DNA of 50,048 bases, taken from the sequence record MH051918, one strand, 5' to 3'. The stretch is from Escherichia phage vB_EcoS_IME347. The notes under the pieces are model-generated. The model was not told the origin of the DNA. It saw only the letters and a program-made list of their open reading frames with translations, and did no database searches. Below are positions 451-46,619 of the stretch, one piece after another. The translations under genes and the position numbers were made by a program. Within the stretch, counting starts at the first letter, position 1, and the number at the start of each line of letters is the position of its first letter.

Positions 451-972
451 ATGAGCAATACCAATCAGCAACCACAAATCACCGACATGATTCGCCTTGC
501 CTGTCAAAATCACTACGCCGCAGGTGAAGCCATGTTCAGCTTCGACGCGCAACAAATGGCCTTCCACACCGTCAAGAAGTATGCGGAGCAATCCGGGATG
601 GATATCACCGACGAGCAGATCGACGAGGAAGCCGCTCGTTGGGTGGGGCAGAATACCGAGAACATTGCGAAGCGGTTCAAGCCGTCATTTGCGCAGCCGA
701 TCATTAAGCGATTCTTTGCTCACATCGGAAAGGCCGTCGTGGTGAATACCGGGCGCAACGATGCCAACGAACCGATGATTACCGTGACCATTACGGACGA
801 GGAAGTCGTGAAGCCGCAGCGCAAGAGCCGGGCGAAGAAAAAGCAATCCATCGGGGACATTCTGGATTCGTTCGTCGTGGACGTGTCGAAGCTCGGGGAT
901 TCGGAGTTGATGGTTCGCGATGTGAATGAAATCGTTCGGCAAATGAAGGAGCACATCCTGAAAGGTGAATAG
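451..972 (+). CDS. hypothetical early protein (173 aa)
   Basis: ATG preceded by AAGGAG at 439-444; long ORF; stop TAG embedded in the downstream intergenic motif; no recognisable domain. Confidence 0.6.
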   Translation: MSNTNQQPQITDMIRLACQNHYAAGEAMFSFDAQQMAFHTVKKYAEQSGMDITDEQIDEEAARWVGQNTENIAKRFKPSFAQPIIKRFFAHIGKAVVVNTGRNDANEPMITVTITDEEVVKPQRKSRAKKKQSIGDILDSFVVDVSKLGDSELMVRDVNEIVRQMKEHILKGE

Positions 973-1012
973 CACGAATTGCTAAAACAGGCGGAAGGGA
1001 ATCCGCTATTAT
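968..1012 (+). promoter_or_regulatory. intergenic module: AATAGCACGAATTGCTAAAA motif + hairpin + TATTAT
   Basis: Motif at 968-987 overlaps the stop codon of the upstream ORF; inverted repeat gcgga..tccgc at 991-1006; -10-like hexamer at 1007-1012; followed by RBS and ATG at 1049. Confidence 0.55.
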
Positions 1013-1048
1013 ACATCCATCGAAACGAAACACGGAAAGGGCAGCGAA

Positions 1049-1234
1049 ATGAAAATCATCAAAGTGGGTTATGACATCGTTAACGGCAAAAACTTTGCAT
1101 ACGGCGAAAACTTCCAGTTTGAAATCACCGAAGCGGATCGCATTAATTGGAACTTCGACCTGCTCAACGGCTTTGATCTTGAAATCACTCGTGAAGATTT
1201 CGACGCGCTGACTTGCGAGAAATACGAATACTAA
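1049..1234 (+). CDS. small acidic hypothetical protein (61 aa)
   Basis: RBS GGAAAGG upstream; 13 Asp/Glu versus 6 Lys/Arg; flanked on both sides by the intergenic motif. Confidence 0.5.
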   Translation: MKIIKVGYDIVNGKNFAYGENFQFEITEADRINWNFDLLNGFDLEITREDFDALTCEKYEY

Positions 1235-1277
1235 TAGCACGAATTGCTAAAGCCCGGTCAATCGGATCGGGTATAGT
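1234..1277 (+). promoter_or_regulatory. intergenic motif module (AATAGCACGAATTGCTAAA + hairpin + TATAGT)
   Basis: Motif at 1234-1252 overlapping stop TAA at 1232-1234; inverted repeat at 1253-1271; TATAGT at 1272-1277. Confidence 0.55.
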
Positions 1278-1307
1278 AACCACATCGACAACAAAGAGGG
1301 TAGAGAA

Positions 1308-1556
1308 ATGAAAAAGGTCACGGTTAAGCTGTTAAATCACGGCGGGTATGACGGATTAAAGGGCGTTGAATTCCCGCAGGTAGTGGAAGGATTCGAACAT
1401 CCGACGCTGGATTACATTGACGTTCCGTTTGAGGAGTTGGAGCGCATCGGGTACGACAAGGCGAAAGGTCGCTGCTGTGGAAACCTGCCGGACTGCGCTG
1501 AAGGTAGCCCGTGCCTGACATTCTTCAAGTTTAGCGAAGCGGAGGTGATCGCATGA
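1308..1556 (+). CDS. hypothetical early protein (82 aa)
   Basis: RBS AGAGGG then ATG; ORF in six-frame track. Confidence 0.5.
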   Translation: MKKVTVKLLNHGGYDGLKGVEFPQVVEGFEHPTLDYIDVPFEELERIGYDKAKGRCCGNLPDCAEGSPCLTFFKFSEAEVIA

Positions 1557-1753
1557 AAAAGGTTCCAATGTTCATCGCTGGCGGCATCGCCAAATATTAC
1601 GCCGTAATTGGCAATAAATTCTATTACTGGAGCGAATTCCAAAAGTGCTGGTGTGGCTCAGTTAACGATCCGGGGCAAAATGAGCGACGCCTCGAAAGGG
1701 CGATCCGTGAGGGTAAAGTTTTCCTAGCCACCATCAAGGGGGAAATCCTATGA
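1553..1753 (+). CDS. hypothetical early protein (66 aa)
   Basis: ATGA start/stop overlap with the upstream ORF, suggesting translational coupling. Confidence 0.5.
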   Translation: MKKVPMFIAGGIAKYYAVIGNKFYYWSEFQKCWCGSVNDPGQNERRLERAIREGKVFLATIKGEIL

Positions 1754-1860
1754 ATCCACTCGCTTTCGGCACGGCGATTTTCTTTCTGGCGACGGGGCAT
1801 TTTTGGCTGTTCATCGTCACCATGATCTTAATTGGCGCGGGAGCCTTTGACGATGATTAA
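1750..1860 (+). CDS. small hydrophobic peptide (36 aa), putative membrane peptide
   Basis: ATG overlaps upstream TGA (ATGA); translation is strongly hydrophobic (MNPLAFGTAIFFLATGHFWLFIVTMILIGAGAFDDD); below the track size cutoff. Confidence 0.3.
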   Translation: MNPLAFGTAIFFLATGHFWLFIVTMILIGAGAFDDD

Positions 1861-2053
1861 GATGAAATGTGTGCGGTCAACCTACGCGCTGTTTTCGGCT
1901 GGTGAGGTTTACGACTTCAAACGGGCTGGTGAGGCCGGGCGCTTCACGGTGTACGAGTACGAGCGCGAGGGCGCACTGTATCGCTTCGGTCTTGATGATG
2001 CCGGAGCTAACGAAACTGACGGTAATTTTATGCAATTCGAAGAGGTGAAATAA
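1853..2053 (+). CDS. hypothetical early protein (about 66 aa)
   Basis: ORF in track (1832..2053); first in-frame ATG at 1853. Confidence 0.4.
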   Translation: MIKMKCVRSTYALFSAGEVYDFKRAGEAGRFTVYEYEREGALYRFGLDDAGANETDGNFMQFEEVK

Positions 2054-2250
2054 TGTACATTTTAACTGCTGTTCTGGTTCTGGTGATTCTGGTTCTGTAT
2101 GTGTGCGGCTGCTTCCTCATGCGGGCTTTCCTGCGGACGAATGACACAACCGATCAGGATAAGTGGAAGCCTGTCCTTACGTGGCCTGTCATCATGATTG
2201 ATGTTATTTGGGATTGTGCAATCAAAAACCACAAGAAATTTGAGTGGTAA
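2053..2250 (+). CDS. small membrane protein (65 aa)
   Basis: TAATG overlap with upstream ORF; N-terminal hydrophobic helix (ILTAVLVLVILVLYVCGCFLM). Confidence 0.5.
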   Translation: MYILTAVLVLVILVLYVCGCFLMRAFLRTNDTTDQDKWKPVLTWPVIMIDVIWDCAIKNHKKFEW

Positions 2251-2294
2251 ATAGCACGAATAGCTAAACATGCCGGGCGGCAATCCGGCATAAT
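2250..2294 (+). promoter_or_regulatory. intergenic motif module (AATAGCACGAATAGCTAAA + hairpin + CATAAT)
   Basis: Motif directly after stop TAA at 2248-2250; inverted repeat gccgg..ccggc; CATAAT at 2289-2294. Confidence 0.5.
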
Positions 2295-2326
2295 GCAACC
2301 ACACCAAACGAAACGAGGAAAACGAA

Positions 2327-2584
2327 ATGACTCTCAACGAAGTGATCGAAATCATCTGTGGCTATGGCCTCCGCGCAAAACGCGAACTGCTGACTTGCGG
2401 CGCAACGCACGTAGCGATTGACGATAACGGCTCAATCTTCGCCTACAAAGGCGAGCCGCGCAACGACGACCCGGACGGTCAAGAGTGGTTGCCGGGACAC
2501 GGAGAGGGTGATCGCACTGTGATGTACTGCGGCGTGACCGAATATCCGGGCAACTGGAAAAGCTGCGTCTGGAAACTCCCGTAA
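2327..2584 (+). CDS. hypothetical early protein (85 aa)
   Basis: RBS GAGGAA; ORF in track. Confidence 0.5.
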   Translation: MTLNEVIEIICGYGLRAKRELLTCGATHVAIDDNGSIFAYKGEPRNDDPDGQEWLPGHGEGDRTVMYCGVTEYPGNWKSCVWKLP

Positions 2585-2634
2585 ATAGCACTTTTTGTTA
2601 AAACTGAATCTCGGGGCTGCGATATAGTAGCCCT
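2584..2634 (+). promoter_or_regulatory. intergenic motif module (variant AATAGCACTTTTTGTTAAAA + hairpin + TATAGT)
   Basis: Variant motif at 2584-2603 after stop TAA; inverted repeat ggggctgc..gtagccc around TATAGT at 2623-2628. Confidence 0.5.
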
Positions 2635-2658
2635 ACACCAAACGAAGAGGGTAACACA

Positions 2659-2961
2659 ATGAAATTAGCACGTAGCGCAGTATTCGCAGTCGGCACGCAG
2701 GGCAATAAAAGCACTGCATTCCTGTACATTAACAGCAAGGGTGAAATCTCCCCGTTCTGGCGTAGCGAGTATCATGCGGACGGATGGAGCAAGCACGGCG
2801 AGCTTGACCTGATTTGCGGACAAAAGCCTATCAATCACGATCACTGGTACGGCATCGAACTTGACGGGGTGGAACGTGACATTACCATGATTCAATCGCA
2901 CGTTACCCGCGCTGAAGGTGTGGACTTTAAGCGAGCGCTGAAGTTCATCGGAAAGCACTAA
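2659..2961 (+). CDS. hypothetical early protein (100 aa)
   Basis: RBS AGAGGG; ORF in track. Confidence 0.5.
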   Translation: MKLARSAVFAVGTQGNKSTAFLYINSKGEISPFWRSEYHADGWSKHGELDLICGQKPINHDHWYGIELDGVERDITMIQSHVTRAEGVDFKRALKFIGKH

Positions 2962-3027
2962 TTGTTAAAAGGGGGATTCATCCTGACTGGTATAATCCCC
3001 ACATCAACCAAGCGAGAGGAAAGCAGA

Positions 3028-3492
3028 ATGTTACGCAAAGAAGATATCACCTACCCAATCAGCTTCGTTAGCTTCGGAGTTGGCACCTTTACATTCACCA
3101 ACGAGAAAGGCGGCCACATGGTGTGCGCCAATGGCTACGAGCAACGCGAAATCGAATGCAGGGTGGGGGAATTTATAGAAAAAGCGAACAAGCACAACCC
3201 GGACAACGATCCTAAGCGTGACTACAACTACACGATGCCGGGCGCGGCGGCTGAGGTTAAGTCTGGTGAGTGCAGGGCTGAGTATATGCCAATCGGATCA
3301 ACTCTAACGGGCGTCCGCATGGATGATGGAGATTGGGCTGAACTGAGAATCACTCCTCGCCGGATTGAGGTTGATTCCGAGGTGATTACCTTCCTGCTGC
3401 ATGCGCACTACAGCACCAACACCAAGCAGTCACGTTTTGCCGGGGAAGTGAGCATGAAGCGCGATGCGATTGTTCGTTGGGAGAAGGCATAA
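3028..3492 (+). CDS. hypothetical early protein (154 aa)
   Basis: In-frame ATG at 3028 preceded by GAGAGGAAAG; the track ORF begins further upstream but without an ATG. Confidence 0.5.
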   Translation: MLRKEDITYPISFVSFGVGTFTFTNEKGGHMVCANGYEQREIECRVGEFIEKANKHNPDNDPKRDYNYTMPGAAAEVKSGECRAEYMPIGSTLTGVRMDDGDWAELRITPRRIEVDSEVITFLLHAHYSTNTKQSRFAGEVSMKRDAIVRWEKA

Positions 3493-3644
3493 TGGCAACT
3501 TGGTACTTAATCGCGATCACCTATTACGCCGGGGTTCAGCCGATCCCGTTCGACTCGCACAAGGCTTGCATTGATGCGCGAGAGGTAATCAAGAGAAACA
3601 ACCCGACAACCGCAAGCTTGCAGGTTGTATGCGTTAAGAAATAG
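3492..3644 (+). CDS. small hydrophobic protein (50 aa)
   Basis: ATG overlaps upstream stop (TAATG); hydrophobic N-terminus (MATWYLIAITYYAGV); stop TAG lies inside the following motif; below track cutoff. Confidence 0.3.
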   Translation: MATWYLIAITYYAGVQPIPFDSHKACIDAREVIKRNNPTTASLQVVCVKK

Positions 3645-3690
3645 CACGAATTGCTAAACCTTCCGCAAGGCCATTTGATATAGTGGCCTT
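3640..3690 (+). promoter_or_regulatory. intergenic motif module (AATAGCACGAATTGCTAAA + hairpin carrying TGATATAGT)
   Basis: Motif at 3640-3658; inverted repeat aaggcca..tggcctt at 3667-3690 enclosing the extended -10-like TGATATAGT at 3676-3684. Confidence 0.55.
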
Positions 3691-3724
3691 ATTGAAGCAG
3701 AGCAACCAATCAGAGGCAATGACC

Positions 3725-3937
3725 ATGAAATTTTATCAAACGAGCCGTAACGCTGTTCTGAAATACTGGATTGAAAACGGCGTTGTGATGTGCAGCGGAA
3801 TGGCGGGCGAGCCGTTTAAGTCAGCAATGACCGTCGAAGATGTGGAATGGGCTGTCAGTCGCGGAATGATGGTTCCGGTTCAGAGCAACCCGTTCGACTA
3901 CTGGAATAAACTGAAGTCAGGGGATCTGTTTAAGTGA
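3725..3937 (+). CDS. hypothetical early protein (about 70 aa)
   Basis: ATG at 3725 with RBS CAGAGG about 7 nt upstream. Confidence 0.45.
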   Translation: MKFYQTSRNAVLKYWIENGVVMCSGMAGEPFKSAMTVEDVEWAVSRGMMVPVQSNPFDYWNKLKSGDLFK

Positions 3938-4167
3938 TTATCGTCAACACCGAAACGGGCGAGGTCATGGATAACTGCATCGTTATCGACGACAAGCCCA
4001 AGCCGAAGAGCAAGGCAGGAACTTACGTTAGGACGGTCTGCAAGGCTCCCGGATGCGGGAATATTTACGAGGCGAAAGCCTCAGACCTGAAGCGCGGTTG
4101 GGGATTGACCTGCTGTAAGTCATGCGCAGCCGTGGTTCGCGAACTTAAAAAGAAAGGGCGTTGGTAA
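3934..4167 (+). CDS. small Cys-rich, putative zinc-ribbon protein (77 aa)
   Basis: ATGA overlap; cysteine pattern CKAPGCG ... CCKSC. Confidence 0.5.
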   Translation: MIIVNTETGEVMDNCIVIDDKPKPKSKAGTYVRTVCKAPGCGNIYEAKASDLKRGWGLTCCKSCAAVVRELKKKGRW

Positions 4168-4355
4168 TGGAGCGTTTAAGCTACTGGCAGATACTGGATA
4201 AGGCCGGGCGACTGCGCGAGCAGCTTCGCGGGCTACCGGATAATGACCGAATGGAAATAATCGGTCGGGCGTTGCTGGATCTGGTTCACGGCGACGTGAC
4301 CTATCACTCATGCGGCAACGCACAATGGAACCTGACCTTTGAGGTGAAGAAATGA
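4161..4355 (+). CDS. hypothetical early protein (64 aa)
   Basis: Overlapping start; ORF in track. Confidence 0.45.
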   Translation: MVMERLSYWQILDKAGRLREQLRGLPDNDRMEIIGRALLDLVHGDVTYHSCGNAQWNLTFEVKK

Positions 4356-4654
4356 ACAACTTGCACGAACTGAAGATTTTCCCGCGCCACTTCTACGGCG
4401 TGAAGATGGGGCAGAAGAAAGCAGAATTCAGGGTTGACGATCGCGGATTCAAAACTGGCGACACGCTCCGCCTTCGCGAATGGCACGAGGGCGACTTTAC
4501 CGGGCGGGAAATCAGCGTTGTGGTGACTGACGTAACCGACGTGACCGAGTTCATCAATCGGGCGAACGCCGAACTGTACAACGGGAACCGCTTCGTAATG
4601 CTGTCGTTCTTCGTGGTTCACGCGAGCCTTTGCGATATCCCGTACATCCGATAG
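4352..4654 (+). CDS. ASCH-like (DUF3850-type) small protein (100 aa)
   Basis: N-terminal pattern HELKIFP..F..V..G.K..E.R..DR.F..GD.L.L.E...TGRE resembles the DUF3850/ASCH fold; judged by eye only. Confidence 0.45.
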   Translation: MNNLHELKIFPRHFYGVKMGQKKAEFRVDDRGFKTGDTLRLREWHEGDFTGREISVVVTDVTDVTEFINRANAELYNGNRFVMLSFFVVHASLCDIPYIR

Positions 4655-4702
4655 CACGAATTGCTAAAACAATAATCCGGGGCTATGCCATAATAGCCCC
4701 AC
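4650..4702 (+). promoter_or_regulatory. intergenic motif module (GATAGCACGAATTGCTAAAA + hairpin + CATAAT)
   Basis: Motif overlaps stop TAG; inverted repeat ggggctatg..catagcccc with TGCCATAAT-like element inside. Confidence 0.5.
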
Positions 4703-4725
4703 ACCAAACGAAAGAGGAAGTAGAT

Positions 4726-5106
4726 ATGAAATTCAAATGCACAACCGACACAACGAAGAAATTCACTCCGGGCAAAGTCTACGAGACTTCGGCGAGCAAC
4801 GCACTTCACAACGTGGCTATCCGTGACGACTCCGGGCGGACTCGCGTATTTCGTGTAACTCATAACGGCGAAGGTATTCGCTGGAATGTCGGCGGCAATA
4901 AGTCTGCGGTTATGAAAAAGCTTCATCCTACCTTCCGCATCGACGAGTTGGGTACTGTCCATATCAGCGACGGCGAAGTAACCCGAGTCAAGATCGGCGG
5001 TTGGTGCGAGACTGCGGAATCTAAGCGCGAACGAATCACGAAAATCGCTATCGCGGCAACTCTGGTGCTGGTGAGTGTGGCTGTATTCGTGGCGAATCAC
5101 TTCTGA
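4726..5106 (+). CDS. hypothetical protein with C-terminal transmembrane helix (126 aa)
   Basis: RBS AGAGGAAG then ATG at 4726; C-terminal hydrophobic segment IAIAATLVLVSVAVFVANHF; N-terminal MKFKCT...FTPGKVYE motif is shared with three other small ORFs. Confidence 0.5.
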   Translation: MKFKCTTDTTKKFTPGKVYETSASNALHNVAIRDDSGRTRVFRVTHNGEGIRWNVGGNKSAVMKKLHPTFRIDELGTVHISDGEVTRVKIGGWCETAESKRERITKIAIAATLVLVSVAVFVANHF

Positions 5107-5154
5107 TTTAAAAGGGGAATCTCTCTGAGCGGTTCCCCATAACAAGGAATTCAA

Positions 5155-5280
5155 ATGGTAGACGTGAATCACTGGAATGAACCGCCAAAGCATGACGTTC
5201 TGTTTTGGTTTCTCGGGTTGCTGATAACGCTCGTTATCATCTTGAAAGGCGTGATGGTGGCGGAATGGATTCTGACCTGA
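5155..5280 (+). CDS. possible small membrane peptide (41 aa)
   Basis: AAGGAA RBS about 7 nt before ATG at 5155; hydrophobic core; overlaps the start of the next ORF in another frame; speculative. Confidence 0.2.
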   Translation: MVDVNHWNEPPKHDVLFWFLGLLITLVIILKGVMVAEWILT

Positions 5281-5474
5281 TTAACTACGAAGATGCAGCG
5301 CGTGACGCTATCGATGGTATGCTGCCAAATTCGAAGCGTGTGGCTCACTATCGCGGTTTTAAGGGTTCACCTGTTAAACTGTATTGCGAGATTTTGAAGC
5401 TCTCAGAAGTCGATACAGCGCGTTTAGAGGCATACGATTTTAAGCGTTTTTCGATAACCATCGAAACCAAATAG
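5265..5474 (+). CDS. hypothetical early protein (69 aa)
   Basis: In-frame ATG at 5265 within track ORF 5205..5474. Confidence 0.4.
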   Translation: MDSDLINYEDAARDAIDGMLPNSKRVAHYRGFKGSPVKLYCEILKLSEVDTARLEAYDFKRFSITIETK

Positions 5475-5520
5475 CACGAATTGCTAAAAACCTATCAGGG
5501 GAATGCGCTATGATTCCCCT
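5470..5520 (+). promoter_or_regulatory. intergenic motif module (AATAGCACGAATTGCTAAAA + hairpin + TATGAT)
   Basis: Motif overlaps stop TAG; inverted repeat ggggaatgcgc..gattcccc. Confidence 0.5.
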
Positions 5521-5544
5521 ACACCAACAAGCGAGGACGACAAA

Positions 5545-5976
5545 ATGAAACATCTGGTATGCATTGTAGAAGGTTGCGGCCTGGAAGGAATCGGCGGTGA
5601 ACTCGGTCACTACATGATCGCGAAGAATGACCAAGACCGAAGCGGCGACGTTGAGATAACCTCCCGCCACGCACTCCCTTACATCATGGAGACTCTCGGT
5701 GATGGAATGTATCAGGGTTATGGCTCCAGCGCTATTTACAAGCAATACCCGATCCGCAAGCGTCTGGTTCGCGCATTCTTTAAGTACGCGCATCACGATT
5801 GCAAGCTTTCACGCAATGCGGCGAAAAGTTGGGCGCGAGCTATGGCTGACGGATATTTCTTCCGTGATGGTCAGGCGATCAGCGAAATGATTCAGACAAT
5901 CATGATCGACTATGACGGCGATTTCGGTCAAGAGTCATTCGATAGCTACGTTGCCGACGAGATCTCTTACTGGTAA
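5545..5976 (+). CDS. hypothetical early protein (143 aa)
   Basis: ATG at 5545 after GAGGACGA; ORF in track. Confidence 0.5.
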   Translation: MKHLVCIVEGCGLEGIGGELGHYMIAKNDQDRSGDVEITSRHALPYIMETLGDGMYQGYGSSAIYKQYPIRKRLVRAFFKYAHHDCKLSRNAAKSWARAMADGYFFRDGQAISEMIQTIMIDYDGDFGQESFDSYVADEISYW

Positions 5977-6026
5977 ATAGCACGAATTGCTAAAACTTGC
6001 TCAGGGGCATTTGTTATAGTGTCCCT
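5976..6026 (+). promoter_or_regulatory. intergenic motif module (AATAGCACGAATTGCTAAAA + hairpin with TGTTATAGT)
   Basis: Motif after stop TAA; inverted repeat ggggca..gtccc around TGTTATAGT. Confidence 0.5.
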
Positions 6027-6059
6027 CGTTGAGTTAAGCAACCAATAAAGGAAAAAGCG

Positions 6060-6590
6060 ATGATTATCAACGCATACGGTAAAGAGTTTCACACAAACGC
6101 GCCTTCCGGCCTTGTCTGTATTTTCGACTACGACGGGACGCTTTCGGACGGTTCGCACCGACTTCACCTCCTGCCGAAGAAGGATTTACACCTCACTGAA
6201 AGCTGGAGCGAATTCAACCTTGCATCGGTGGACGACGCCCCGATCGAATCAACTATCAAGGTAATGAATGCGATGTATGCAGCCGGGCATTGTGTCATTA
6301 TTTTGACCGGACGCAGCGATGAAGTTGAAGCGGAATCCCGAGTTTGGTTAGATCGTCACGGCGCGAAGTATGACTTCATGATCATGCGTCGCCACGACGA
6401 CAACCGCAAAGACACGGTTATCAAAGAGGAAGTTCTCCGCGAGATCGGGTTGGAGCGAATCCTCGCGGCTTGGGACGATAGCCCTTCAGTTATTCCACAC
6501 TTTAGGAATATTGGAATAACTACATATGCCGTAACTGACTACGGCGACAACGTTCACGATCACCTTAAATCACACGGAGTAGAAAAATAA
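6060..6590 (+). CDS. HAD-superfamily phosphatase-like protein (176 aa)
   Basis: HAD motif I DxDGT present as FDYDGTLSDGS near the N-terminus; the start of the next ORF overlaps its stop. Confidence 0.55.
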   Translation: MIINAYGKEFHTNAPSGLVCIFDYDGTLSDGSHRLHLLPKKDLHLTESWSEFNLASVDDAPIESTIKVMNAMYAAGHCVIILTGRSDEVEAESRVWLDRHGAKYDFMIMRRHDDNRKDTVIKEEVLREIGLERILAAWDDSPSVIPHFRNIGITTYAVTDYGDNVHDHLKSHGVEK

Positions 6591-7174
6591 TGAGCAAAGT
6601 AATCATTCTCAACGCGCCGCCAGCATGTGGCAAAGACACGATAGGTTCAATCATCGCGGATATGAATCAGATTTATGGCGTTCGCATGTTGAGCTTCAAA
6701 GCGCCGATGTTCGAGATCGCCCGAGCTATCCTCGGTGATGCGAACTTTGATTATTTCATGTTCCTTTATAACGATCGGCTCCATAAGGAAAAGCCCGATT
6801 CCATTCTGAACGGTAAAAGCCCGCGCGAGTTCATGATCTGGATTAGCGAGGCAATCATTAAGCCAGAATTCGGCAATGATTATTTCGGGCGTCGAATGGT
6901 TGAGGCTGTCAAGTCAGGCACTGCCCCGGCGATTATCACGGACGGCGGATTCACTGAAGAGACAATCGCACTAATTGAAGCTGGTATTCAGGTTCACGTC
7001 TGCCGACTGCACCGCGACGGATTCACGTTTGAAGGCGACTCGCGAAACTATCTTCACCTGCCTGTGGGCTGGCAAGGCGTAAACGGCTACACCGAAGAAG
7101 ATTTCCAGTTACGTGACGGTGATCCTGATTACACTGCCAGCGTGATTACCGGGAAATACCTGCGTCACTTCTAA
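6590..7174 (+). CDS. P-loop kinase, deoxynucleoside-monophosphate-kinase-like (194 aa)
   Basis: N-terminal IILNAPPACGKDT resembles the GKDT P-loop of phage dNMP kinases (T4 gp1 type); identified by eye, not by search. Confidence 0.5.
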   Translation: MSKVIILNAPPACGKDTIGSIIADMNQIYGVRMLSFKAPMFEIARAILGDANFDYFMFLYNDRLHKEKPDSILNGKSPREFMIWISEAIIKPEFGNDYFGRRMVEAVKSGTAPAIITDGGFTEETIALIEAGIQVHVCRLHRDGFTFEGDSRNYLHLPVGWQGVNGYTEEDFQLRDGDPDYTASVITGKYLRHF

Positions 7175-7224
7175 TAGCACGAATTGCTAAAAACTCGGCG
7201 GGGTAAGCTGTTATAGTTACCCCA
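7174..7224 (+). promoter_or_regulatory. intergenic motif module (AATAGCACGAATTGCTAAAA + hairpin with TGTTATAGT)
   Basis: Motif overlaps stop TAA at 7172-7174; inverted repeat ggggtaagctg..agttacccc. Confidence 0.5.
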
Positions 7225-7253
7225 TCGAAAACAACCAATCAGAGGAAACGCGA

Positions 7254-7439
7254 ATGATGCAAGTCACCAGCTACACCCAATCGACAGCCGAAGCAATCAG
7301 CGAACTTCGAAAGGTTGCCGACGCGCTGGAGAAAGGCGAGGCTATGCTTTATAGCGGATCAGTTACCAACACCAAGCGTTACGGCGAAGCCCGTGAATAC
7401 GCTATCGAAATCACAGTAGTCACCGATAAGGAGATGTAA
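7254..7439 (+). CDS. hypothetical early protein (61 aa)
   Basis: RBS CAGAGGAAA; ORF in track. Confidence 0.45.
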   Translation: MMQVTSYTQSTAEAISELRKVADALEKGEAMLYSGSVTNTKRYGEAREYAIEITVVTDKEM

Positions 7440-7441
7440 AA

Positions 7442-7645
7442 ATGAGCAACACAATCAAACTTCGCACGACTCACGCCGATTGCCCTTGGATTACTCCGGG
7501 CAAGATTTACGAGGCCGAATTGGTTGCGAAAGATGGATTTGACGGACTGTATCGGCTGAAGAATCCAGACTTCGGAGAGGTGCTCACTGCAATTGAGAAC
7601 TCCTGTCATTTGGGCGGGGAAAGTTGGGAAGTAGTCACCGAATAG
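7442..7645 (+). CDS. hypothetical early protein (67 aa)
   Basis: Closely follows the previous ORF; contains the ITPGKIYE motif shared with ORF 4726. Confidence 0.45.
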   Translation: MSNTIKLRTTHADCPWITPGKIYEAELVAKDGFDGLYRLKNPDFGEVLTAIENSCHLGGESWEVVTE

Positions 7646-7692
7646 CACGAATTGCTAAAAGTTCCGCAAGGGCATTTGATAGAATGCCCTTA
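7641..7692 (+). promoter_or_regulatory. intergenic motif module (AATAGCACGAATTGCTAAAA + hairpin with TGATAGAAT)
   Basis: Motif overlaps stop TAG; inverted repeat caagggca..tgccctt enclosing TGATAGAAT. Confidence 0.5.
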
Positions 7693-7718
7693 TTGAAACG
7701 AAGCAAAGGAAAATAGAA

Positions 7719-7928
7719 ATGAAACCAGCAATTTTCGAAGCACGTCGCACTTATGGCGCAATCCTCTCCGGGATTCAGTACGAAGTAATGAGCAGTGAGG
7801 ATGGTTACTATATTCAGGTGGACGACGACGGCACTTGCTACGAGGTTATTTTCGACAAGTACGATCCCGATGTTTGCATGTTGAAACATGCGCAGTTAAT
7901 CCGATTCGATCGAGTGGAGGAAGCATAA
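7719..7928 (+). CDS. hypothetical early protein (69 aa)
   Basis: RBS AAAGGAAA; ORF in track. Confidence 0.45.
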   Translation: MKPAIFEARRTYGAILSGIQYEVMSSEDGYYIQVDDDGTCYEVIFDKYDPDVCMLKHAQLIRFDRVEEA

Positions 7929-8260
7929 TGTTACAGGTCAACCTTTCAGAGAAACAGGCTCGCGAGTTTTACGACTTCTGCTTGCGCGTCGCTGGTGTGC
8001 AGGACAATCCAGTAATCCGGGAAATGTTCAGCGTTATTGAACGCCAGATCCTGCCGGACTCAACCAACAAGGCGGAGTTCGCAGCGTGGAGGAGCAAGCG
8101 AATCACTCCGGCAATTGTCGAAGCGTGGAAGCGCAAGAACGGATCGCCTCGCATCGTGTTTGCGAACGGTGAACCTCGTCGAAATATGGGTTGCGTCGTT
8201 CTCGGTGAATATGCTGATCTGGCAACCGGGCGAATGGTAACGGTGATGCATCATGATTAA
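7928..8260 (+). CDS. hypothetical early protein (110 aa)
   Basis: ATG at 7928 overlapping the upstream stop (TAATG), in frame with track ORF 7835..8260. Confidence 0.5.
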   Translation: MLQVNLSEKQAREFYDFCLRVAGVQDNPVIREMFSVIERQILPDSTNKAEFAAWRSKRITPAIVEAWKRKNGSPRIVFANGEPRRNMGCVVLGEYADLATGRMVTVMHHD

Positions 8261-8408
8261 GTTTATCCACACTTTCAAAGTGTCGTCCGGCAAAGAGCGG
8301 AAAGAGATCGTGAAGGTTTACGGGAGTCCGGTTAAGGCAAAAGAGCAATTGCGTTTGCTTGGTGGTCGGATTGATGTTGTTAAACATGTTGAATTCTGGA
8401 GTAAGTAA
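8253..8408 (+). CDS. small basic hypothetical protein (51 aa)
   Basis: ATG overlaps the end of the upstream ORF; the next ORF starts 2 nt after its stop; below track cutoff. Confidence 0.3.
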   Translation: MIKFIHTFKVSSGKERKEIVKVYGSPVKAKEQLRLLGGRIDVVKHVEFWSK

Positions 8409-8409
8409 G

Positions 8410-8640
8410 ATGTTTGGTTTAAGTGAAGCGCATTACAATATTGTCAAACGTGCGGCGCGCGGTCTGAACGACGCAATCAGCGAACTACCGAAGGCCGATC
8501 GAAAGAAGGAGCAAATCGTCATTAAGGTGATCGATAAGCATTACGAACCAGTTGCGACACTGATTAACCGGATGCGCTTCGTTTGGGTGGCGGGCTATCT
8601 CGCCGGGCGCGTAGGAAACAAAAATGGGGACTACGAATAA
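8410..8640 (+). CDS. hypothetical early protein (76 aa)
   Basis: In-frame ATG at 8410 within track ORF. Confidence 0.45.
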   Translation: MFGLSEAHYNIVKRAARGLNDAISELPKADRKKEQIVIKVIDKHYEPVATLINRMRFVWVAGYLAGRVGNKNGDYE

Positions 8641-8834
8641 TGATCGGGAAAGTGGATTGGGTGAAGTGCGAACGGGCATATCACGAAAGCGGGTTCACGG
8701 CGGGTTGCGAATATCAGGTTCTGAAGTTCGATTCCCGGCTCGGAGTCATGACGATCCAGAATGAGCGCGGCGAGCGTTGCTTGGTGAGTCACCCTCACGA
8801 CATAAATTACGGAGAGTTTCGAATTATCGATTGA
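8640..8834 (+). CDS. hypothetical early protein (64 aa)
   Basis: TAATG overlap with the upstream ORF. Confidence 0.45.
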   Translation: MIGKVDWVKCERAYHESGFTAGCEYQVLKFDSRLGVMTIQNERGERCLVSHPHDINYGEFRIID

Positions 8835-8990
8835 CTCGAATCTCTGAACGGTGATATCATTCTTTCCGTAGACAAAAGAGGCGCTTAGGCGCAACGCGCA
8901 TCGCGATAGATGCATAACCTTTGTAGTATCGGGGCGTAGTGGTAAGCCCGCCGCAGACCCGTAAGCGGCTCAAATTCACAGGAGCTTTAC

Positions 8991-9152
8991 ATGAAGCAAG
9001 ATATCAAAATCGAAATCAAAGTAACCCGAAACGGCGAAATCACTCGCTACAAAAAATCACTCAAGCCGGGCGAGGCTGTAATCGGTCGAATCGCTGGTGT
9101 GATGCTGAAGGCGCAGGAAGATGAAGCGATTCACGGTAAAGCTAACGATTAA
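8991..9152 (+). CDS. small hypothetical protein (53 aa)
   Basis: AGGAG 7 nt upstream of ATG 8991; partially overlaps the alternative track ORF 9121..9306, so only one of the two may be real. Confidence 0.3.
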   Translation: MKQDIKIEIKVTRNGEITRYKKSLKPGEAVIGRIAGVMLKAQEDEAIHGKAND

Positions 9153-9308
9153 GCGAATGGGGCGCAGGTGCTCAACCTGCCGCCAAAACTTCGAAACCGA
9201 AGTAAAAGCGAGTTCCGCAGAAGAAGCCGTAGCAAAGGCTAAACTCCAGTCAGGAGCCAATGCGGACACTCACCAGTTTTCAATCAACCTTGTAAGGGAA
9301 ATTTAACC

Positions 9309-9533
9309 ATGACAACTTTTTTATTCATTCTCGCCTTTATCGCTGTTTTCGTGCTTGGTATCGCGTCTGCTCTTCTGCTTATCGCCTTTATCGTGAAGCA
9401 CGACGCCGAAACTGACGAAGGCGTGTGGCTGACGTACAATCGCAGTGAGGATGTTTGGAAGTGCTTCGGTGATTTGCCAGCAGTCTACGCGAAGGCTCAA
9501 ACTCACAAAAAGCCGATACAAAAAATCTGCTAA
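9309..9533 (+). CDS. small membrane protein (74 aa)
   Basis: N-terminal transmembrane helix FLFILAFIAVFVLGIASALLLIAFIV; last ORF before the early-region terminator. Confidence 0.5.
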   Translation: MTTFLFILAFIAVFVLGIASALLLIAFIVKHDAETDEGVWLTYNRSEDVWKCFGDLPAVYAKAQTHKKPIQKIC

Positions 9534-9537
9534 AACT

Positions 9538-9561
9538 AAACCCGCCTCGGCGGGTTTTTTT
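9538..9561 (+). terminator. intrinsic terminator ending the early gene array
   Basis: GC stem cccgcc-tcg-gcggg followed by a T7 run. Confidence 0.7.
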
Positions 9562-9579
9562 ACGTCTGGAGTATGATAA

Positions 9580-9598
9580 AATAGCACGAAATGTTAAA
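9580..9598 (+). promoter_or_regulatory. intergenic motif copy (AATAGCACGAAATGTTAAA) upstream of terS
   Basis: Motif variant between the terminator and the RBS GGAGG at 9604-9608. Confidence 0.45.
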
Positions 9599-9614
9599 CA
9601 TCGGAGGACGTTTT

Positions 9615-14987: not shown

Positions 14988-15464
14988 ATGGCAATTGCAG
15001 CAAGCTATCAGAAAGATATGTCTATCGCCGTTCCGGGTATGGTGGCAGACACCTCCCGTTACAACATCGACGGCGCTTGCGTACTGAGCGGTGACGTTGA
15101 TATCCTCGTCGGCGTTGCGGTTCAGGTTGACAACGTTCAGGCCGTTGACGGTCACAAAGTCATGAAGCCTATGGCATCCGGCGGCAAGGCTTATGGTGTG
15201 GCGATTCGCTCCCACTTCCAGACTAAAGGCAAAGATGGTCAGATGTACTATGAAGCGGGCGGCGGCATTAACGTAATGACCTCCGGGCGCGTTTGGGTTA
15301 TCTCCAAAGATTCCACCGCTCCGGCGTTTGGTGAAACTGTCAACTTTGACGTTGACGGACAGCAGAAAGCAGACGGCGCGATCGAAACCGCATGGACTTA
15401 TGCGGGCGGCTTCACTACCTATCAGGATTTGAAGCTGGTTGAAATCCAATTGCATCAACTGTAA
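14988..15464 (+). CDS. capsid-associated protein, paralog 1 (decoration/cement-like, putative)
   Basis: RBS AAGGAG; shares YNIDGACV..GVAVQV..YGV..RS..GRVWV motifs with the next ORF. Confidence 0.5.
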   Translation: MAIAASYQKDMSIAVPGMVADTSRYNIDGACVLSGDVDILVGVAVQVDNVQAVDGHKVMKPMASGGKAYGVAIRSHFQTKGKDGQMYYEAGGGINVMTSGRVWVISKDSTAPAFGETVNFDVDGQQKADGAIETAWTYAGGFTTYQDLKLVEIQLHQL

Positions 15465-16017: not shown

Positions 16018-16100
16018 CCGGAAGATCCTGAACCGGAAGAGGGAGGCGAAACTGACCCGGAAGAAGGTTCAGAGGGTTAACACAAAAACAGTTTGACGCT

Positions 16101-16118
16101 TTAACAAAAAGTGCTATC
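16101..16118 (-). promoter_or_regulatory. intergenic motif copy (TTAACAAAAAGTGCTATC, reverse variant) upstream of the capsid gene
   Basis: Reverse complement matches the AATAGCACTTTTTGTTAA variant; followed by a hairpin plus T run at 16121-16147. Confidence 0.4.
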
Positions 16119-16167
16119 ATAAAGCCGTTATCACTTAACGGCTTTTTTCACAAAAGAGGATGTAAAC

Positions 16168-17145
16168 ATGACTAAGAAATATGACGAATTCGAAGCAACC
16201 GTAGTTGGCTCCCACCTGAAGATGCGCGGTGAAAAAGCCGATGCTGATACTCTCGGTATCTGGACTGCTCAGGAGCTTCACAAGCTGAAAAATCAGTCTT
16301 ACGAAAAAGACTATCCGGCAGGTTCCGCTCTGCGAGTATTCCCGGTAACTAACGATCTGTCCCCGGTTGATAAGACCTTCGAATATCAGACCTTTGATAA
16401 GGTTGGTATCGCGCAGATTATCACCGACTACACCGATGATCTTCCTCTGGTTGATGCTATGTCGTCCAGCGAGTTTGGCAAAGTTTTCCGCCTCGGTAAC
16501 GCATACCTGATTTCAATTGACGAAATCAAAGCAGGTCAAGCAACTGGCAAGTCGCTGTCTAATCGCAAGGTTAACGCCGCGCAACTGGCACACGATCAGT
16601 TAGTCAACCGCCTGGTGTTTAAAGGTTCTGTTCCTCACAAAATTGTGAGCGTGTTTAATCACCCGAACATTACCAAGATCACCTCCAAAGGCTGGACGTC
16701 AACCGCTGGTAGCGTAGTAACCAAAAACCCGGAAACCGCAGAAGAAGAACTGACGGCGGCTATTGAGTCGATCCAGACTCTGACGATGGGCGCACACCGT
16801 GCAACGCACATCCTGATCCCGCCGTCAATGCGCAAGGTTCTGACTGTTCGTATGCCTGACTCCACTGAAAGCTATCTGGATTACTTCATGAAGCAGAACG
16901 GCGGAATCACCATCGAATCAATCGCGGAACTGGAGGATATCGACGGCGCTGGCACGAAGGGTGCTCTGGTTTACGAGTACGACCCGATGAATATGTCCAT
17001 CGAAATTCCTGAAGCGTTCAACATGCTTCCTGCGCAGCCGAAAGACCTGCACTTCAAAGTGCCTTGCACCTCTAAGTGTACTGGTCTTACGATTTACCGC
17101 CCACTAACGATTGTCCTGATTACAGGACTTGCAGTAAGCGAGTAA
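16168..17145 (+). CDS. major capsid protein
   Basis: 325-aa ORF with AAGAGGA RBS in the canonical position after scaffold and accessory capsid genes. Confidence 0.7.
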   Translation: MTKKYDEFEATVVGSHLKMRGEKADADTLGIWTAQELHKLKNQSYEKDYPAGSALRVFPVTNDLSPVDKTFEYQTFDKVGIAQIITDYTDDLPLVDAMSSSEFGKVFRLGNAYLISIDEIKAGQATGKSLSNRKVNAAQLAHDQLVNRLVFKGSVPHKIVSVFNHPNITKITSKGWTSTAGSVVTKNPETAEEELTAAIESIQTLTMGAHRATHILIPPSMRKVLTVRMPDSTESYLDYFMKQNGGITIESIAELEDIDGAGTKGALVYEYDPMNMSIEIPEAFNMLPAQPKDLHFKVPCTSKCTGLTIYRPLTIVLITGLAVSE

Positions 17146-18767: not shown

Positions 18768-19170
18768 ATTATCAGTGGCGGCGCGAGCCGCCCTTGGGGA
18801 ATGGCTGGAGATCCCCGGAAACGAATATCCAGTGGCTTACGAGAGCGTTCCTTTTGAGCCTCCTTCGGACGGTTCCAGTTGGTTAAAATTCGACTACGTG
18901 GAGGCGGAAACCGTTCGAGTCGGACTGTCCCGCAAGTGCTCGTATTATGTGGGGATGGTTCAGGTTGGCATACACTTTGCGCCGGGGTTAGGTATGGACT
19001 CAACCCGGCTACTCGCGAAAAACCTTGCTGATTTTTTCGCAGATGGTAAAATGCTGATTAACGGTTGTTATATCGTGGAGGGTGGAGAGGTTCGCCCTGT
19101 TCAAAAATCTGTGGGCGGATGGTTCTATCCTGTTCGCTTTTATGTTCGTTATGACTCAAAGGGAGTATAA
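18757..19170 (+). CDS. tail terminator-like protein (putative)
   Basis: ATG at 18757 after GCGAGGG; immediately upstream of the major tail gene. Confidence 0.4.
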   Translation: MHYELSVAARAALGEWLEIPGNEYPVAYESVPFEPPSDGSSWLKFDYVEAETVRVGLSRKCSYYVGMVQVGIHFAPGLGMDSTRLLAKNLADFFADGKMLINGCYIVEGGEVRPVQKSVGGWFYPVRFYVRYDSKGV

Positions 19171-19868: not shown

Positions 19869-19948
19869 TTTCTGTAGAATCACTGTATCAAATCAATACG
19901 GCGCTGTTTTAACAAAAAGTGCTATCACACCAATCAGGAGAAATGACA

Positions 19949-26053: not shown

Positions 26054-26101
26054 CGCCTGTATAATGGCATCACCGATAAATAGCACAAAAGGTTAAACAT
26101 C

Positions 26102-30053: not shown

Positions 30054-30109
30054 TGGTGTTTCCTCGTTTCGTTTTGATGAATGCAGTATAGCCCCGTTTC
30101 CGGGGCTTG

Positions 30110-30129
30110 TTTTAGCAATTCGTGCTGTC
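30110..30129 (-). promoter_or_regulatory. intergenic motif copy (reverse orientation) with hairpin and TATACT
   Basis: Reverse complement reads TGACAGCACGAATTGCTAAAA and includes the stop codon of the 216-aa gene, followed on the - strand by hairpin ccccggaaacgggg and TATACT. Confidence 0.5.
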
Positions 30130-32686: not shown

Positions 32687-32767
32687 ACAGCACAAATAGC
32701 TAAACATGTAATTCTCGGGGTGTTATAATGCACCCCGTAGACAAGAAACCAATCAGGAGATAACGAA

Positions 32768-35797: not shown

Positions 35798-35817
35798 AAT
35801 AGCACTAATTGCTAAGC
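35798..35817. promoter_or_regulatory. intergenic motif copy (AAATAGCACTAATTGCTAAG) upstream of the tail fiber gene
   Basis: Palindromic motif variant between the primase terminator and the tail-fiber start. Confidence 0.4.
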
Positions 35818-35857
35818 ACCGATTTTATCATTGTGGTATGCGCCCGGCAATAGGGCA

Positions 35858-36845: not shown

Positions 36846-36900
36846 CGCGTAACAGGAGTTTACCCGCTACGCGCTTTTGTGTTTTAGCTATTTGTGCTCT
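36846..36900 (-). promoter_or_regulatory. hairpin plus reverse-orientation motif copy at the end of the HTH gene
   Basis: On the - strand: motif GAGCACAAATAGCTAAAA (36883-36900, overlapping the stop of gene 36884..37327) followed by stem cgcgta..tacgcg and a T run. Confidence 0.45.
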
Positions 36901-37327
36901 CGACTTCATCCTTTCGAACTACGCGCATGAACTTGCGGTTCTTGCATCGTTTTTCAAGGCACTTTCCGTTAGAGTCGAACTTGAGATCGAATCGCAGCCA
37001 GCTTGCGCGATACCCGGTACAACCCTGACGACGATACGCGCGATGCGCCGCCTCCGCTCCCTGCCAAGAAATCATGCCGCGAACTTTCCATTCGTTCACA
37101 TTCTGATTTGTTACCTTCAGGGCTTTCGCCGTGGCGGAGGGGGAGCCGTAGAATTCGATCAGGGCGTCAAGTCTGGCGCGTAGTCCGGCGCGAACCTCAT
37201 CTTTCAGGATGTAGAATCCGCATCGCTTGCGAGGCTTTACATCTTTGCCCCGTCGTGTACCATTGTTCCCGTTCAGGTGACGACGATCGATTTCCCCGGT
37301 TGATTCTGCAATACGCTTGATTGTCAT
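36884..37327 (-). CDS. HTH-domain protein (YdaS/Cro-like), putative regulator
   Basis: Central segment GSPSATAKALKVTNQNVNEWKVRGMIS resembles a YdaS/Cro-type helix-turn-helix; divergent from the helicase gene. Confidence 0.4.
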   Translation of the reverse strand: MTIKRIAESTGEIDRRHLNGNNGTRRGKDVKPRKRCGFYILKDEVRAGLRARLDALIEFYGSPSATAKALKVTNQNVNEWKVRGMISWQGAEAAHRAYRRQGCTGYRASWLRFDLKFDSNGKCLEKRCKNRKFMRVVRKDEVESTNS

Positions 37328-37339: not shown

Positions 37340-37359
37340 AATAGCACTTTTTGTTAAAA
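37340..37359 (+). promoter_or_regulatory. intergenic motif copy (AATAGCACTTTTTGTTAAAA) upstream of the helicase gene
   Basis: Variant motif followed by inverted repeat gcgtg..cacgc enclosing TATTATAC. Confidence 0.45.
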
Positions 37360-37420
37360 CTAACTAATCGATGCGTGTATTATACAGTCAACGCACGAGT
37401 AACGCAAAGGATTAAGAACA

Positions 37421-39894: not shown

Positions 39895-39954
39895 CTAAAA
39901 CAGCCGGAAAGGAATCCGGCATAATCACCACATCGAAACAACGGAGAGAAACAA

Positions 39955-40910: not shown

Positions 40911-40975
40911 TTGCTAAACGTACCCGGCGCAAGTCGGGTATTATTGTTTTATTGAAACGAAACGGAGAATCACAA

Positions 40976-42877: not shown

Positions 42878-42896
42878 ATAGCACAAATAGCTAAAG
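42876..42896 (+). promoter_or_regulatory. intergenic motif copy (AAATAGCACAAATAGCTAAAG) with hairpin + TTATAGT
   Basis: Motif overlaps stop TAA; followed by inverted repeat ggggtaacg..gttacccc. Confidence 0.45.
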
Positions 42897-42951
42897 ACAA
42901 ATCAGGGGTAACGAGTTATAGTTACCCCACACAAACAAAGGAGATTTAGCA

Positions 42952-46566: not shown

Positions 46567-46619
46567 CGTTTTAACTCCTTATTGGACGGGGTAAATTATA
46601 CCCCGCCCATACTACACGC

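Follow-up and report, generated by a model that had tools for sequence, protein, structure and literature searches.

The 50,048-nt DNA sequence of Escherichia phage vB_EcoS_IME347 (record MH051918), referred to below in its full length as the window, belongs to a T1-like siphovirus (Drexlerviridae). Its genes are repeatedly preceded by a short element that is identical or nearly identical to the consensus marbox, the DNA site of the enterobacterial regulators MarA, SoxS and Rob, and that stands at a fixed distance from a -10 hexamer. Judged by sequence and position, this motif is likely to be a consensus marbox, and ~25 of its copies are likely to form class II MarA/SoxS/Rob promoters driven by the host. 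A first-pass annotation had described a 19-bp palindromic motif, followed by a hairpin and an extended -10, that partitions the early gene array into cassettes. It was on the right track and is partly supported, but it was unspecific, leaving the factor unnamed.

Sequence of the repeat and its spread over the genome

All 12 positions at which the first-pass annotation had placed the motif were confirmed, some of them with a shift of 1 nt. The limits it had drawn (966-9600, the "early array") proved too narrow: when few mismatches are allowed, ~31 copies are found genome-wide, on both strands. For the relaxed core AGCACNNNNNGYTAAA, 26 exact matches were counted over the whole window, against 0.03 expected. 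At 11 of the 12 sites the upstream open reading frame (ORF) ends within the motif or at its very beginning, as had been observed before: its stop codon is either the TAG of AATAGCAC or a TAA overlapping the first motif bases. The exception is the copy at 9580, the sole one of these sites without an adjoining stop, which is preceded by a terminator. The nearest records, those of SRT8, IME-JL8 and BrunoManser, share ~78% identity with the window over the structural genes, and most of the early arm has no match.

The palindrome TAGCA-N5-TGCTA, from which the motif had been defined, is incidental, as conservation is asymmetric (A-T-n-GCAC ... T-G-Y-T-AAA) and orientation strict. Among 347 unique modules from T1-like phages the conserved positions read A-T-n-G-C-A-C-n-w-w-T-T-G-Y-T-A-A-A. 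Across the family, variation falls on the n and w positions of the marbox, both w being A or T in 98% of the modules, and the box is much more conserved across subfamilies than the module sequence that flanks it. This confinement of variation to the n and w positions points to selection on the specific bases of the marbox. Martin et al. are said to have given, in 1999, the consensus AYnGCACnnWnnRYYAAAYn together with an 18-19 bp rule for class II promoters; the conserved A-T preceding GCAC in the phage modules agrees with that consensus. The marbox pattern described more recently, 5'-gcannwwntgnnaaa-3', is non-palindromic (PMC12052159); 23 exact copies of it are present in the window, where 0.49 would be expected. 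[quoted passage not shown] A factor-binding site, one of the options listed in the first-pass annotation, is the best reading. The conserved positions are those of the asymmetric marbox, not of a symmetric palindromic site; an UP-like element, an A/T-rich tract at -40 to -60 contacted by the alpha C-terminal domain, does not fit, as the invariant GCAC and the G-Y core are not A/T-rich.

Box subtypes group by gene class. GAA-type boxes precede mostly small early genes, AAATAG-type boxes (one mismatch to the marbox pattern) lie upstream of the recombinase, primase and ATPase genes and of the lysis region, and TTT-type boxes include two reversed sites of the late region, at 16114 and 19922. A, T and G subtypes of the repeat were noted in phage TLS (PMC11447400). 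The subtypes could form a hierarchy of affinity or timing.

Position of the boxes relative to the promoter elements

All 25 in-register boxes point toward the downstream gene. The gap between the 20-bp box and the -10 hexamer is 18 bp in 21 of the 25 modules, 17 bp in two and 19 bp in two. The -10 is found at a fixed offset, with a mean match to TATAAT of 4.9/6 over the 347 modules. As for the extended -10 of the first-pass annotation, a TG precedes the hexamer in 44% of the modules (the G of the TG in 73%). The distance from TTGCTA to the hexamer is 22 nt (21-23) in every promoter-type copy, so that, as had been noted, TTGCTA does not act as a sigma-70 -35 box; the true -35 position, at a 17-bp spacer, matches TTGACA at only 1.6/6 positions in the modules of the family. 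An A occurs exactly 7 nt after the -10 in 73% of the 347 modules, a share that rises to 86% among the 256 whose -10 is good. The hexamer is followed by a C-rich discriminator, a CA-rich leader and a ribosome-binding site, and the start codon lies 22-39 nt beyond the predicted start in the in-register modules (64 nt at the antisense promoter at 19922). With the start predicted at the conserved A, GCAC would occupy positions -47 to -44 and the box would be centred at -41.5, overlapping the place of a -35 element.

Class II sites of the host are in forward orientation, overlap the -35 region and are centred between -36 and -55 (PMC12052159). The class II promoter of micF carries a 20-bp box with GCAC as the A site and CAAA as the B site (PMC9178005; PMC9638938), centred at -41.5 (PMC9638938), and Rob contacts -47G and -45A in the cryo-electron microscopy structure of the micF complex (PMC9178005). 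In Escherichia coli K-12 the micF box reads acaGCACTGAATGTCAAAAC and is followed after 18 bp by TAGAAT; the G of GCAC and the first base of the -10 are 35 nt apart in micF and in the phage modules alike. Class II promoters of Salmonella have forward sites near -41, a -35 with a mean match of 1.9/6 and a canonical -10 (PMC10268841), and the phage modules agree with them on each of these points.

[quoted passage not shown] T-G-Y-T-AAA, its forward orientation, the 18-bp gap, the centre at -41.5, the lack of a -35 hexamer and the canonical -10. The differences concern number, quality and context. The phage has ~25 copies in the 50 kb of a virulent genome, whereas the host regulon comprises a few dozen degenerate sites in 4.6 Mb; the phage boxes are closer to the consensus than that of micF, which has one mismatch to the published pattern; and, unlike in the host, the box is fused with an RNA hairpin and a conserved CA-rich leader in one cassette. 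Binding of the phage boxes by the host proteins is predicted from their sequence.

Modules along the genome

From the left, the first putative class II module (969-1019, +) has its box at 969-988, TATTAT at 1007-1012, a predicted start at ~1019 and a gene start at 1049; the stop codon TAG of the preceding gene (970-972) falls inside the box. The next (1234-1284, +) has its box at 1234-1253, TATAGT at 1272-1277 and a hairpin between the two, with the predicted start at ~1284 and the gene start at 1308. At 2251-2301 (+) the box (2251-2270; GCACGAATAGCTAAA) is followed by CATAAT (2289-2294) and a gene start at 2327, and at 2585-2635 (+) a T-type box (2585-2604; GCACTTTTTGTTAAA) by TATAGT (2623-2628) and a gene start at 2659. 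The module at 2952-3003 (+) has a gap of 19 bp between its box (2952-2971; GCACTAATTGTTAAA) and a TG with TATAAT (2991-2996); the gene starts at 3028. In the module at 3641-3691 (+), which is near-identical to the T1 module at 3537, the box (3641-3660) is followed by the hairpin AAGGCCA...TGGCCTT with TGaTATAGT in its loop, a predicted start at ~3691 and a gene start at 3725. Hairpins are likewise found at 4651-4701 (+; box 4651-4670), where GGGGCTAT...ATAGCCCC encloses TGcCATAAT ahead of a gene start at 4726, and at 5471-5521 (+; box 5471-5490), where AGGGGAAT...ATTCCCCT is accompanied by TATGAT (5509-5514) and the gene starts at 5545. The polynucleotide kinase gene (start at 6060) is preceded by the module at 5977-6027 (+), with its box at 5977-5996 and TGtTATAGT, the hexamer at 6015-6020. 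Two further modules with hairpins follow: 7174-7224 (+; box 7174-7193), with GGGGTAA...TTACCCC, TGtTATAGT and a gene start at 7254, and 7642-7692 (+; box 7642-7661), with AAGGGCATT...AATGCCCTT, TGaTAGAAT (the hexamer of micF) and a gene start at 7719.

Further along, the module at 30078-30128 (-; box 30128-30109) carries TATACT and serves a gene starting at 30053. An A-type box (GCACAAATAGCTAAA) forms part of the module at 32687-32736 (+), in which TG and TATAAT (32724-32729) follow at a gap of 17 bp and the recombinase gene starts at 32768; another A-type module (36850-36900, -), with TAAACT, precedes the primase gene (36824). The T-type module at 37341-37390 (+), with TATTAT (37378-37383) at a gap of 17 bp, is placed ahead of the helicase gene (37421) and lies in the leader of the divergent gene for a Cro-like regulator. 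The Dam methylase gene (39955) is preceded by a module at 39882-39932 (+) with CATAAT. The two boxes that fit the consensus at 15 of 15 positions belong to the module at 40901-40951 (+; box GCACTAATTGCTAAA, TATTAT, gene start 40976) and to an intragenic module at 41232-41282 (+; TAGTAT). An A-type module with TATAGT at a gap of 19 bp (42878-42929, +) is located upstream of the lysis region. The remaining modules are all on the minus strand: 46588-46638 (A-type, TATAAT, ATPase/helicase gene start 46566), 47090-47140 (TG and TATAGT, gene start 47058), 47634-47684 (TG and TATTAT, gene start 47601), 48826-48876 (T-type, TG and CATAAT, gene start 48798), 49465-49515 (CATACT) and 49829-49879 (T-type, TG and CATAAT). 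The last of these serves the DUF5417 gene (start at 49794), whose homologue in phage Lw1 also stands behind a marbox module.

The hairpin of the cassette

The first-pass annotation had described an inverted repeat about the -10 as part of the element. It is real and covaries, but it is not universal. A perfect stem of at least 6 bp was found in 39% of the modules, against 5% of controls in which 5' and 3' halves from different modules were paired; among 134 diverged modules the values are 30% and 5%, with 37 distinct stem sequences. The usual stem spans ~ -25 to -2, with the -10 in the loop, and module RNAs fold with z-scores of -3.5 to -4.8. Single mismatches in the stem, read on the sense strand in clustered modules, are G·U in 14 cases and A·C in two, against 32 and 37 in the controls (p = 0.004); without clustering the counts are 33 and 4. 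This sense-strand G·U bias indicates an RNA hairpin in transcripts arriving from upstream. The new transcript would lack it, because the predicted start lies just 3' of the hairpin. A search of Rfam with the module returned no match. On the sense strand no U-tract accompanies the hairpins; in the antisense direction the TTTT of the box comes next. By analogy with known elements, the G/C-rich inverted repeat around the -10 would act in readthrough transcripts, probably to attenuate or end them or to protect their 3' ends, and in the absence of a U-tract it may be an attenuator, a 3'-end protector or a processing site.

The model for this role is the promoter-early-stem-loop (PeSL) element of the T4-type phages RB49 and phi1, whose GGGG...CCCC stem-loops, with G-T pairs, lie mostly between the -35 and -10 or over the -10 and for which attenuation was demonstrated (Arbiol et al. 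2010, PMC2839356). The resemblance to PeSL proposed in the first-pass annotation is borne out in architecture: both are repeated intergenic units of promoter and stem-loop reaching from a stop codon to the next start codon, with the same placement of the stem-loop and with G-T pairs. Both also flank small orphan early genes, and here too whole units seem to be gained and lost between relatives. PeSL, however, has a sigma-70 promoter that is complete with its -35 and an upstream part rich in A/T, whereas here a G/C-cored marbox takes the place of that half. Terminator activity and mini-circle formation have been demonstrated for PeSL.

Candidate binding proteins

MarA, SoxS, Rob and RamA are enterobacterial monomers with two helix-turn-helix motifs, which bind an asymmetric site of ~20 bp. 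Pfam scans of 20 candidate small ORFs of the phage detected no protein of the AraC/MarA type, and a maximum-sensitivity hidden Markov model search with MarA, SoxS and Rob against all six-frame ORFs gave a best E value of 0.23. As no protein of this type was found in the phage, we infer that the sites would be read by MarA, SoxS, Rob or RamA of the host. A phage protein common to the T1-like, Lw1/RB43 and C130_2 groups, all of which carry the cassette (see below), was not found in the loci compared, which are part of the Lw1 and C130_2 genomes; what the window shares with these loci at the protein level comprises enzymes of replication and lysis and the product of one small mobile gene.

Two phage proteins were considered as the factor and rejected. 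The product of gene 1 (451-972), the only gene behind a canonical promoter, has no domain matches and has homologues only in 67 phages of Escherichia, Shigella and Citrobacter; it was rejected because it is not co-extensive with the motif. The DUF5417 protein, which also occurs in Lw1, is present in 1418 phage records, T4-like phages included, a distribution that likewise does not fit that of the cassette, and has no solved relative.

According to the proposed mechanism, the host marbox regulators would bind the phage boxes and drive or boost most early and middle units. [quoted passage not shown] The constitutive Rob would serve cells free of stress, and stressed cells would rely on MarA, SoxS or RamA.

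Several points weigh against this proposal. To our knowledge, receptor mutants have come out of selections for T1 resistance but no mutants in rob, marA or soxS, which redundancy among the three regulators could explain. Rob has been reported to be sequestered for the most part when cells are not stressed, with little MarA and SoxS present (PMC2787020; PMC5684230), yet T1-like phages grow vigorously in ordinary cultures. Together with the extended -10 of 44% of the modules, this implies that the promoters may be largely activator-independent; the extended -10 may confer substantial basal activity, so that the boxes tune rather than gate expression. The six copies that are out of promoter register need a separate explanation. 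Finally, T1-like phages encode a conserved Cro-like helix-turn-helix regulator that could itself bind the TAGCA-N5-TGCTA dyad.

Alternative explanations

The reading of the repeat as the site of a phage-encoded protein, for which the Cro-like regulator (36884-37327) would be the likeliest candidate, is unlikely on balance. The protein would bind the dyad as a dimer, activating from -42 as λ CI does at PRM and repressing where the site overlaps a promoter, much in line with the stoperator or enhancer roles suggested by the authors of the TLS study. The core does consist of 5+5 dyad positions, with half-sites 10 bp apart and a centre near -42. The regulator gene is a core gene of the family (823 records, Cro-type helix-turn-helix, annotated in PHROG as a transcriptional regulator), and a reversed copy in its own leader is what autoregulation predicts. 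The asymmetry of the site tells against it, as the invariant G1 has a dyad partner that is C in 65% of cases but T in 35%, and the invariant C4 and the AAA tail have no symmetric partners; nor would a symmetric dimer need the strictly forward orientation seen in 25 of 25 modules. Moreover, the early promoters must fire before any phage protein exists, and the distribution of the regulator does not match that of the cassette, which occurs in the Lw1/RB43 and C130_2 groups, where no homologue was found in the loci compared, including the syntenic primase-helicase gap of C130_2. On this account the marbox match in both sequence and register would be a coincidence.

It is more doubtful still that no factor is involved, the repeat being an UP-like element or displaced -35 read by RNA polymerase, or a sequence merely tolerated beside an extended -10 and multiplied by cassette duplication. 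TTGCTA and TTGTTA do resemble a -35 hexamer, UP elements were named in the TLS paper, the modules have clearly spread by recombination, and a TG in 44% of them beside a strong -10 makes basal activity likely. However, TTGCTA is 5 bp out of register at its distance of 22 nt and on the other face of the helix, the core is of G/C type rather than an A/T tract, and the far stronger conservation of the box than of its flanks, with variation only at n and w positions, indicates selection on these particular bases.

We regard two further readings as very improbable. Host Lrp might bind the outer bases TAGCA.....TGCTA: by our own count, 11/15 (G-type) to 13/15 (T-type) positions fit YAGHAWATTWTDCTR, which we take to be the consensus obtained for Lrp by systematic evolution of ligands by exponential enrichment. 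Lrp sites usually occur in phased clusters far upstream, though, and here the motif is oriented, at a class II register that does not vary; neither the AAA tail nor the invariant C that follows TAGCA belongs to the Lrp consensus, while the marbox accounts for every conserved position. Just as remote is the idea, also raised in the first-pass annotation, that the 19-mer acts as RNA, with a small UAGCA-loop-UGCUA hairpin and the second hairpin together making up a signal between cistrons for processing or termination. Every module RNA that was folded is predicted to contain both hairpins, with the z-scores given above, and the second behaves as a sense-strand RNA structure. The first stem, on the other hand, lacks covariation, its sequence rather than its pairing being kept; the TAGCTA variant breaks the closing pair with no compensation, Rfam has no match, the fixed distance to the -10 is a property of DNA, and the conserved positions are those of the asymmetric marbox.

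Other known sites were discarded. Sigma-54 promoters have GG and GC elements exactly 10 bp apart; TAGCAC-N3-TTGC differs from TGGCAC-N5-TTGC in having AG for GG and in its spacing, which is shorter by 2 bp, and a -10 of the sigma-70 type comes after it. The λ cII repeat (TTGC-N6-TTGC), the T4 MotA box, whose position is wrong, and the long spacers of the MerR type were also considered and dropped.

Occurrence in other phages and exchange of gene units

The cassette is present at equivalent places in T1, as well as in TLS, Rtp, BrunoManser and a Klebsiella Tempevirinae phage; in the latter, six exact copies in the early arm each adjoin the previous stop codon. A scan of viral contigs detected many copies of the motif in individual genomes, including those of TLS, Rtp, SRT8 and ADB-2. 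The full cassette (box, hairpin, TTTGATATAGT and CATCGAAACGAAAC leader) also occurs outside the family, in Lw1/RB16/RB43, which are T4-related myoviruses of 176-180 kb, and in C130_2, a 42-kb siphovirus of another lineage. Two Lw1 copies have a gap of 29 bp rather than 18 bp between box and -10, one helical turn more, with a true U-tract terminator hairpin in between. Genomes that are T1-like or C130_2-like also appear under the names of "Campylobacter", "Streptococcus" and "Stutzerimonas" phages; such hosts seem improbable, and contamination may be the cause.

The modular shuffling of accessory genes suggested in the first-pass annotation finds some support at the level of whole units: the early backbone genes are collinear with those of T1 and BrunoManser, and entire units bounded by boxes differ. 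The four-gene unit between 3640 and 4650 is absent from T1, where a single module, almost identical to the one at 3640, is followed by a homologue of the gene behind 4650; units 1-4 are replaced. The modules form islands of cross-phage similarity between unmatched genes. At the DNA level the evidence is weak, with boundaries of high-scoring segment pairs, taken as homology breakpoints, falling in modules in 12% of cases against 10% expected. A cassette that reaches from stop to start codon and is repeated ~25 times would provide homologous joints through which gene units could be gained, lost or swapped.

The first gene of the right arm, encoding the DUF5417 protein (49516-49794, -), is 68% identical to the Lw1 gene that is also located behind a marbox module. 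It is a small early gene, found from T1-like siphoviruses to T4, and is an unusually widespread mobile early gene.

The repeat itself was published in 2024 for TLS, as a 21-nt direct repeat (aaATAGCACnnnTTGnTAAAA) at 21 sites, oriented with transcription, ~76 nt upstream of start codons and also present in T1, Rtp and Rogue1; only three sigma-70-like promoters were found in that study, and a stoperator, an enhancer or an UP element was suggested (PMC11447400). It is the same element as the motif analyzed here. The fixed -10 register, the covariation of the hairpin, the marbox identity and the occurrence outside the family go beyond that report. This paper was the only one found in the open-access literature on promoters or transcriptomes of Drexlerviridae. 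A search of that literature for the motif string returned nothing, and no papers linking marboxes, MarA or SoxS to T1-like phages were found in it; the most likely identity of the repeat, a phage-wide set of class II marbox promoters within PeSL-like cassettes, was likewise not met with in the open-access literature searched.

Activator-dependent phage promoters without a -35 are served by λ CI at PRM (-42), by C and Mor of Mu (-43.5) and by MotA of T4 (boxes at -30). These promoters and the phage modules have in common a strong -10, no -35 and an activator site over the -35 region. Those activators are encoded by the phages and bind dyads (CI, C, Mor) or at -30 (MotA), whereas the site here is asymmetric and would suit a host monomer. 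As with the stoperators of mycobacteriophage L5, there are numerous sites with a set orientation, but the majority precede a -10 in an activating register; and while stoperators are bound by a phage repressor that blocks transcription, no repressor for the sites was identified in this virulent phage.

Atypical copies and other control regions

Six boxes either lack an in-register -10 or are reversed over another promoter, and most of them are conserved in T1. They are associated with terS, the capsid gene, the tail chaperone (behind the major tail gene), J, the tail fibre gene and the leader of the regulator (the helicase box). A forward marbox at 9581-9600 (+), without an in-register -10, is placed directly upstream of the terS ribosome-binding site and is conserved in T1 (8364). 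The major capsid gene has a canonical sigma-70 promoter (16093-16120, +; TTGACG-16-TATCAT, in T1 TTGACG-16-TATTAT), in which a reversed marbox (16098-16117) fills the spacer and the -10. This promoter is directly followed by a terminator hairpin with a U-tract (16093-16168; T1 15062-15139), and its predicted start falls in the 5' arm; the hairpin would end transcripts from upstream, whereas the promoter's own transcripts could not form the stem. An antisense marbox promoter (19875-19925, -; box 19925-19906, TGaTACAGT), conserved in T1 (18790-18850, -), points into the 3' end of the major tail gene and could produce an early antisense RNA against a late gene. A degenerate forward marbox (26080-26099, +) covers the ribosome-binding site of the tail-tip gene J and is conserved in T1 (25023). 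The lateral tail-fibre promoter (35799-35850, -), also conserved in T1, consists of TTGCCG-17-TGaTAAAAT (35850-35822) with a reversed marbox (35799-35818) at ~+1 to +20.

A marbox in the spacer of the E. coli pbpG promoter represses that gene (PMC12052159), and we therefore hypothesize that the odd boxes may hold late genes down while the factor is available. That one host factor family is both accelerator and brake of the phage programme is a tentative idea, which we think rather doubtful as it stands. Under it, MarA, SoxS, Rob or RamA would activate the ~25 early and middle promoters from -41.5, and the same proteins would obstruct the spacer and -10 of the capsid promoter, the +1 to +20 region of the tail-fibre promoter and the terS and J sites; the antisense promoter behind the major tail gene would be counted among the control boxes of late genes. 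The switch from early to late expression would follow titration of the factor by replicating phage DNA, with ~30 boxes per genome, or alternatively the decay of the short-lived MarA and SoxS after host shut-off.

A marbox pointing left (17-36, -) is cut by the left edge, so the window probably does not contain the whole genome. Next to it, a canonical sigma-70 promoter without a marbox (52-80, +; TTGACT-17-TACAAT), outside the repeat family, is found upstream of the first gene (451-972); a T1 counterpart was read by eye. Beside this promoter the segments 37-140 and 200-345 form a divergent control region with a very A/T-rich stretch and repeats, namely CGTGACAAnATTACA at 37-51 and 97-111, a third partial copy seen by eye at ~129-140, and TATAGGGTGTACAC-like repeats. 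The corresponding place in T1 is occupied by other repeats, of the type 'ATTAC/ATTAA'. These segments may belong to an origin, to an operator or to a region related to pac. A second strong canonical promoter (TTGACT-18-TGaTATCAT; 8831-8990) is followed by a non-coding leader of 130 nt and by three small genes conserved across T1-like phages; no notable structure was detected in the leader (8867-8995; z = -0.28). At the right end, the non-coding stretch 49880-50048 is rich in TGATTG/TGATTA repeats, resembles T1 positions 1-60 and may be a packaging or replication signal.

Implications for T1-like phages

The class II marbox reading gives a specific answer on how T1-like phages are transcribed, one that names the proteins and is cheap to test, and it offers annotators a rule for locating promoters in T1-like genomes. 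It extends the idea of mobile promoter cassettes of the PeSL type to siphoviruses and to cassette sharing between phage families; under the accelerator-and-brake idea the cassette would be a mobile promoter unit of unrelated enterobacterial phages (T1-like, RB43-like and C130_2-like). With ~30 consensus boxes per genome, replicating phage DNA could also act as a sponge that leaves host promoters short of MarA, SoxS and Rob. If the reading is correct, a whole family of coliphages and Klebsiella phages that are common and in therapeutic use would be coupled to the regulators of multidrug resistance. Their expression would then be altered in Mar-type mutants or in the presence of salicylate, bile or oxidants, which bears on combinations of phages and antibiotics, and under the accelerator-and-brake idea phage gene expression would read the stress and antibiotic-resistance state of the host.

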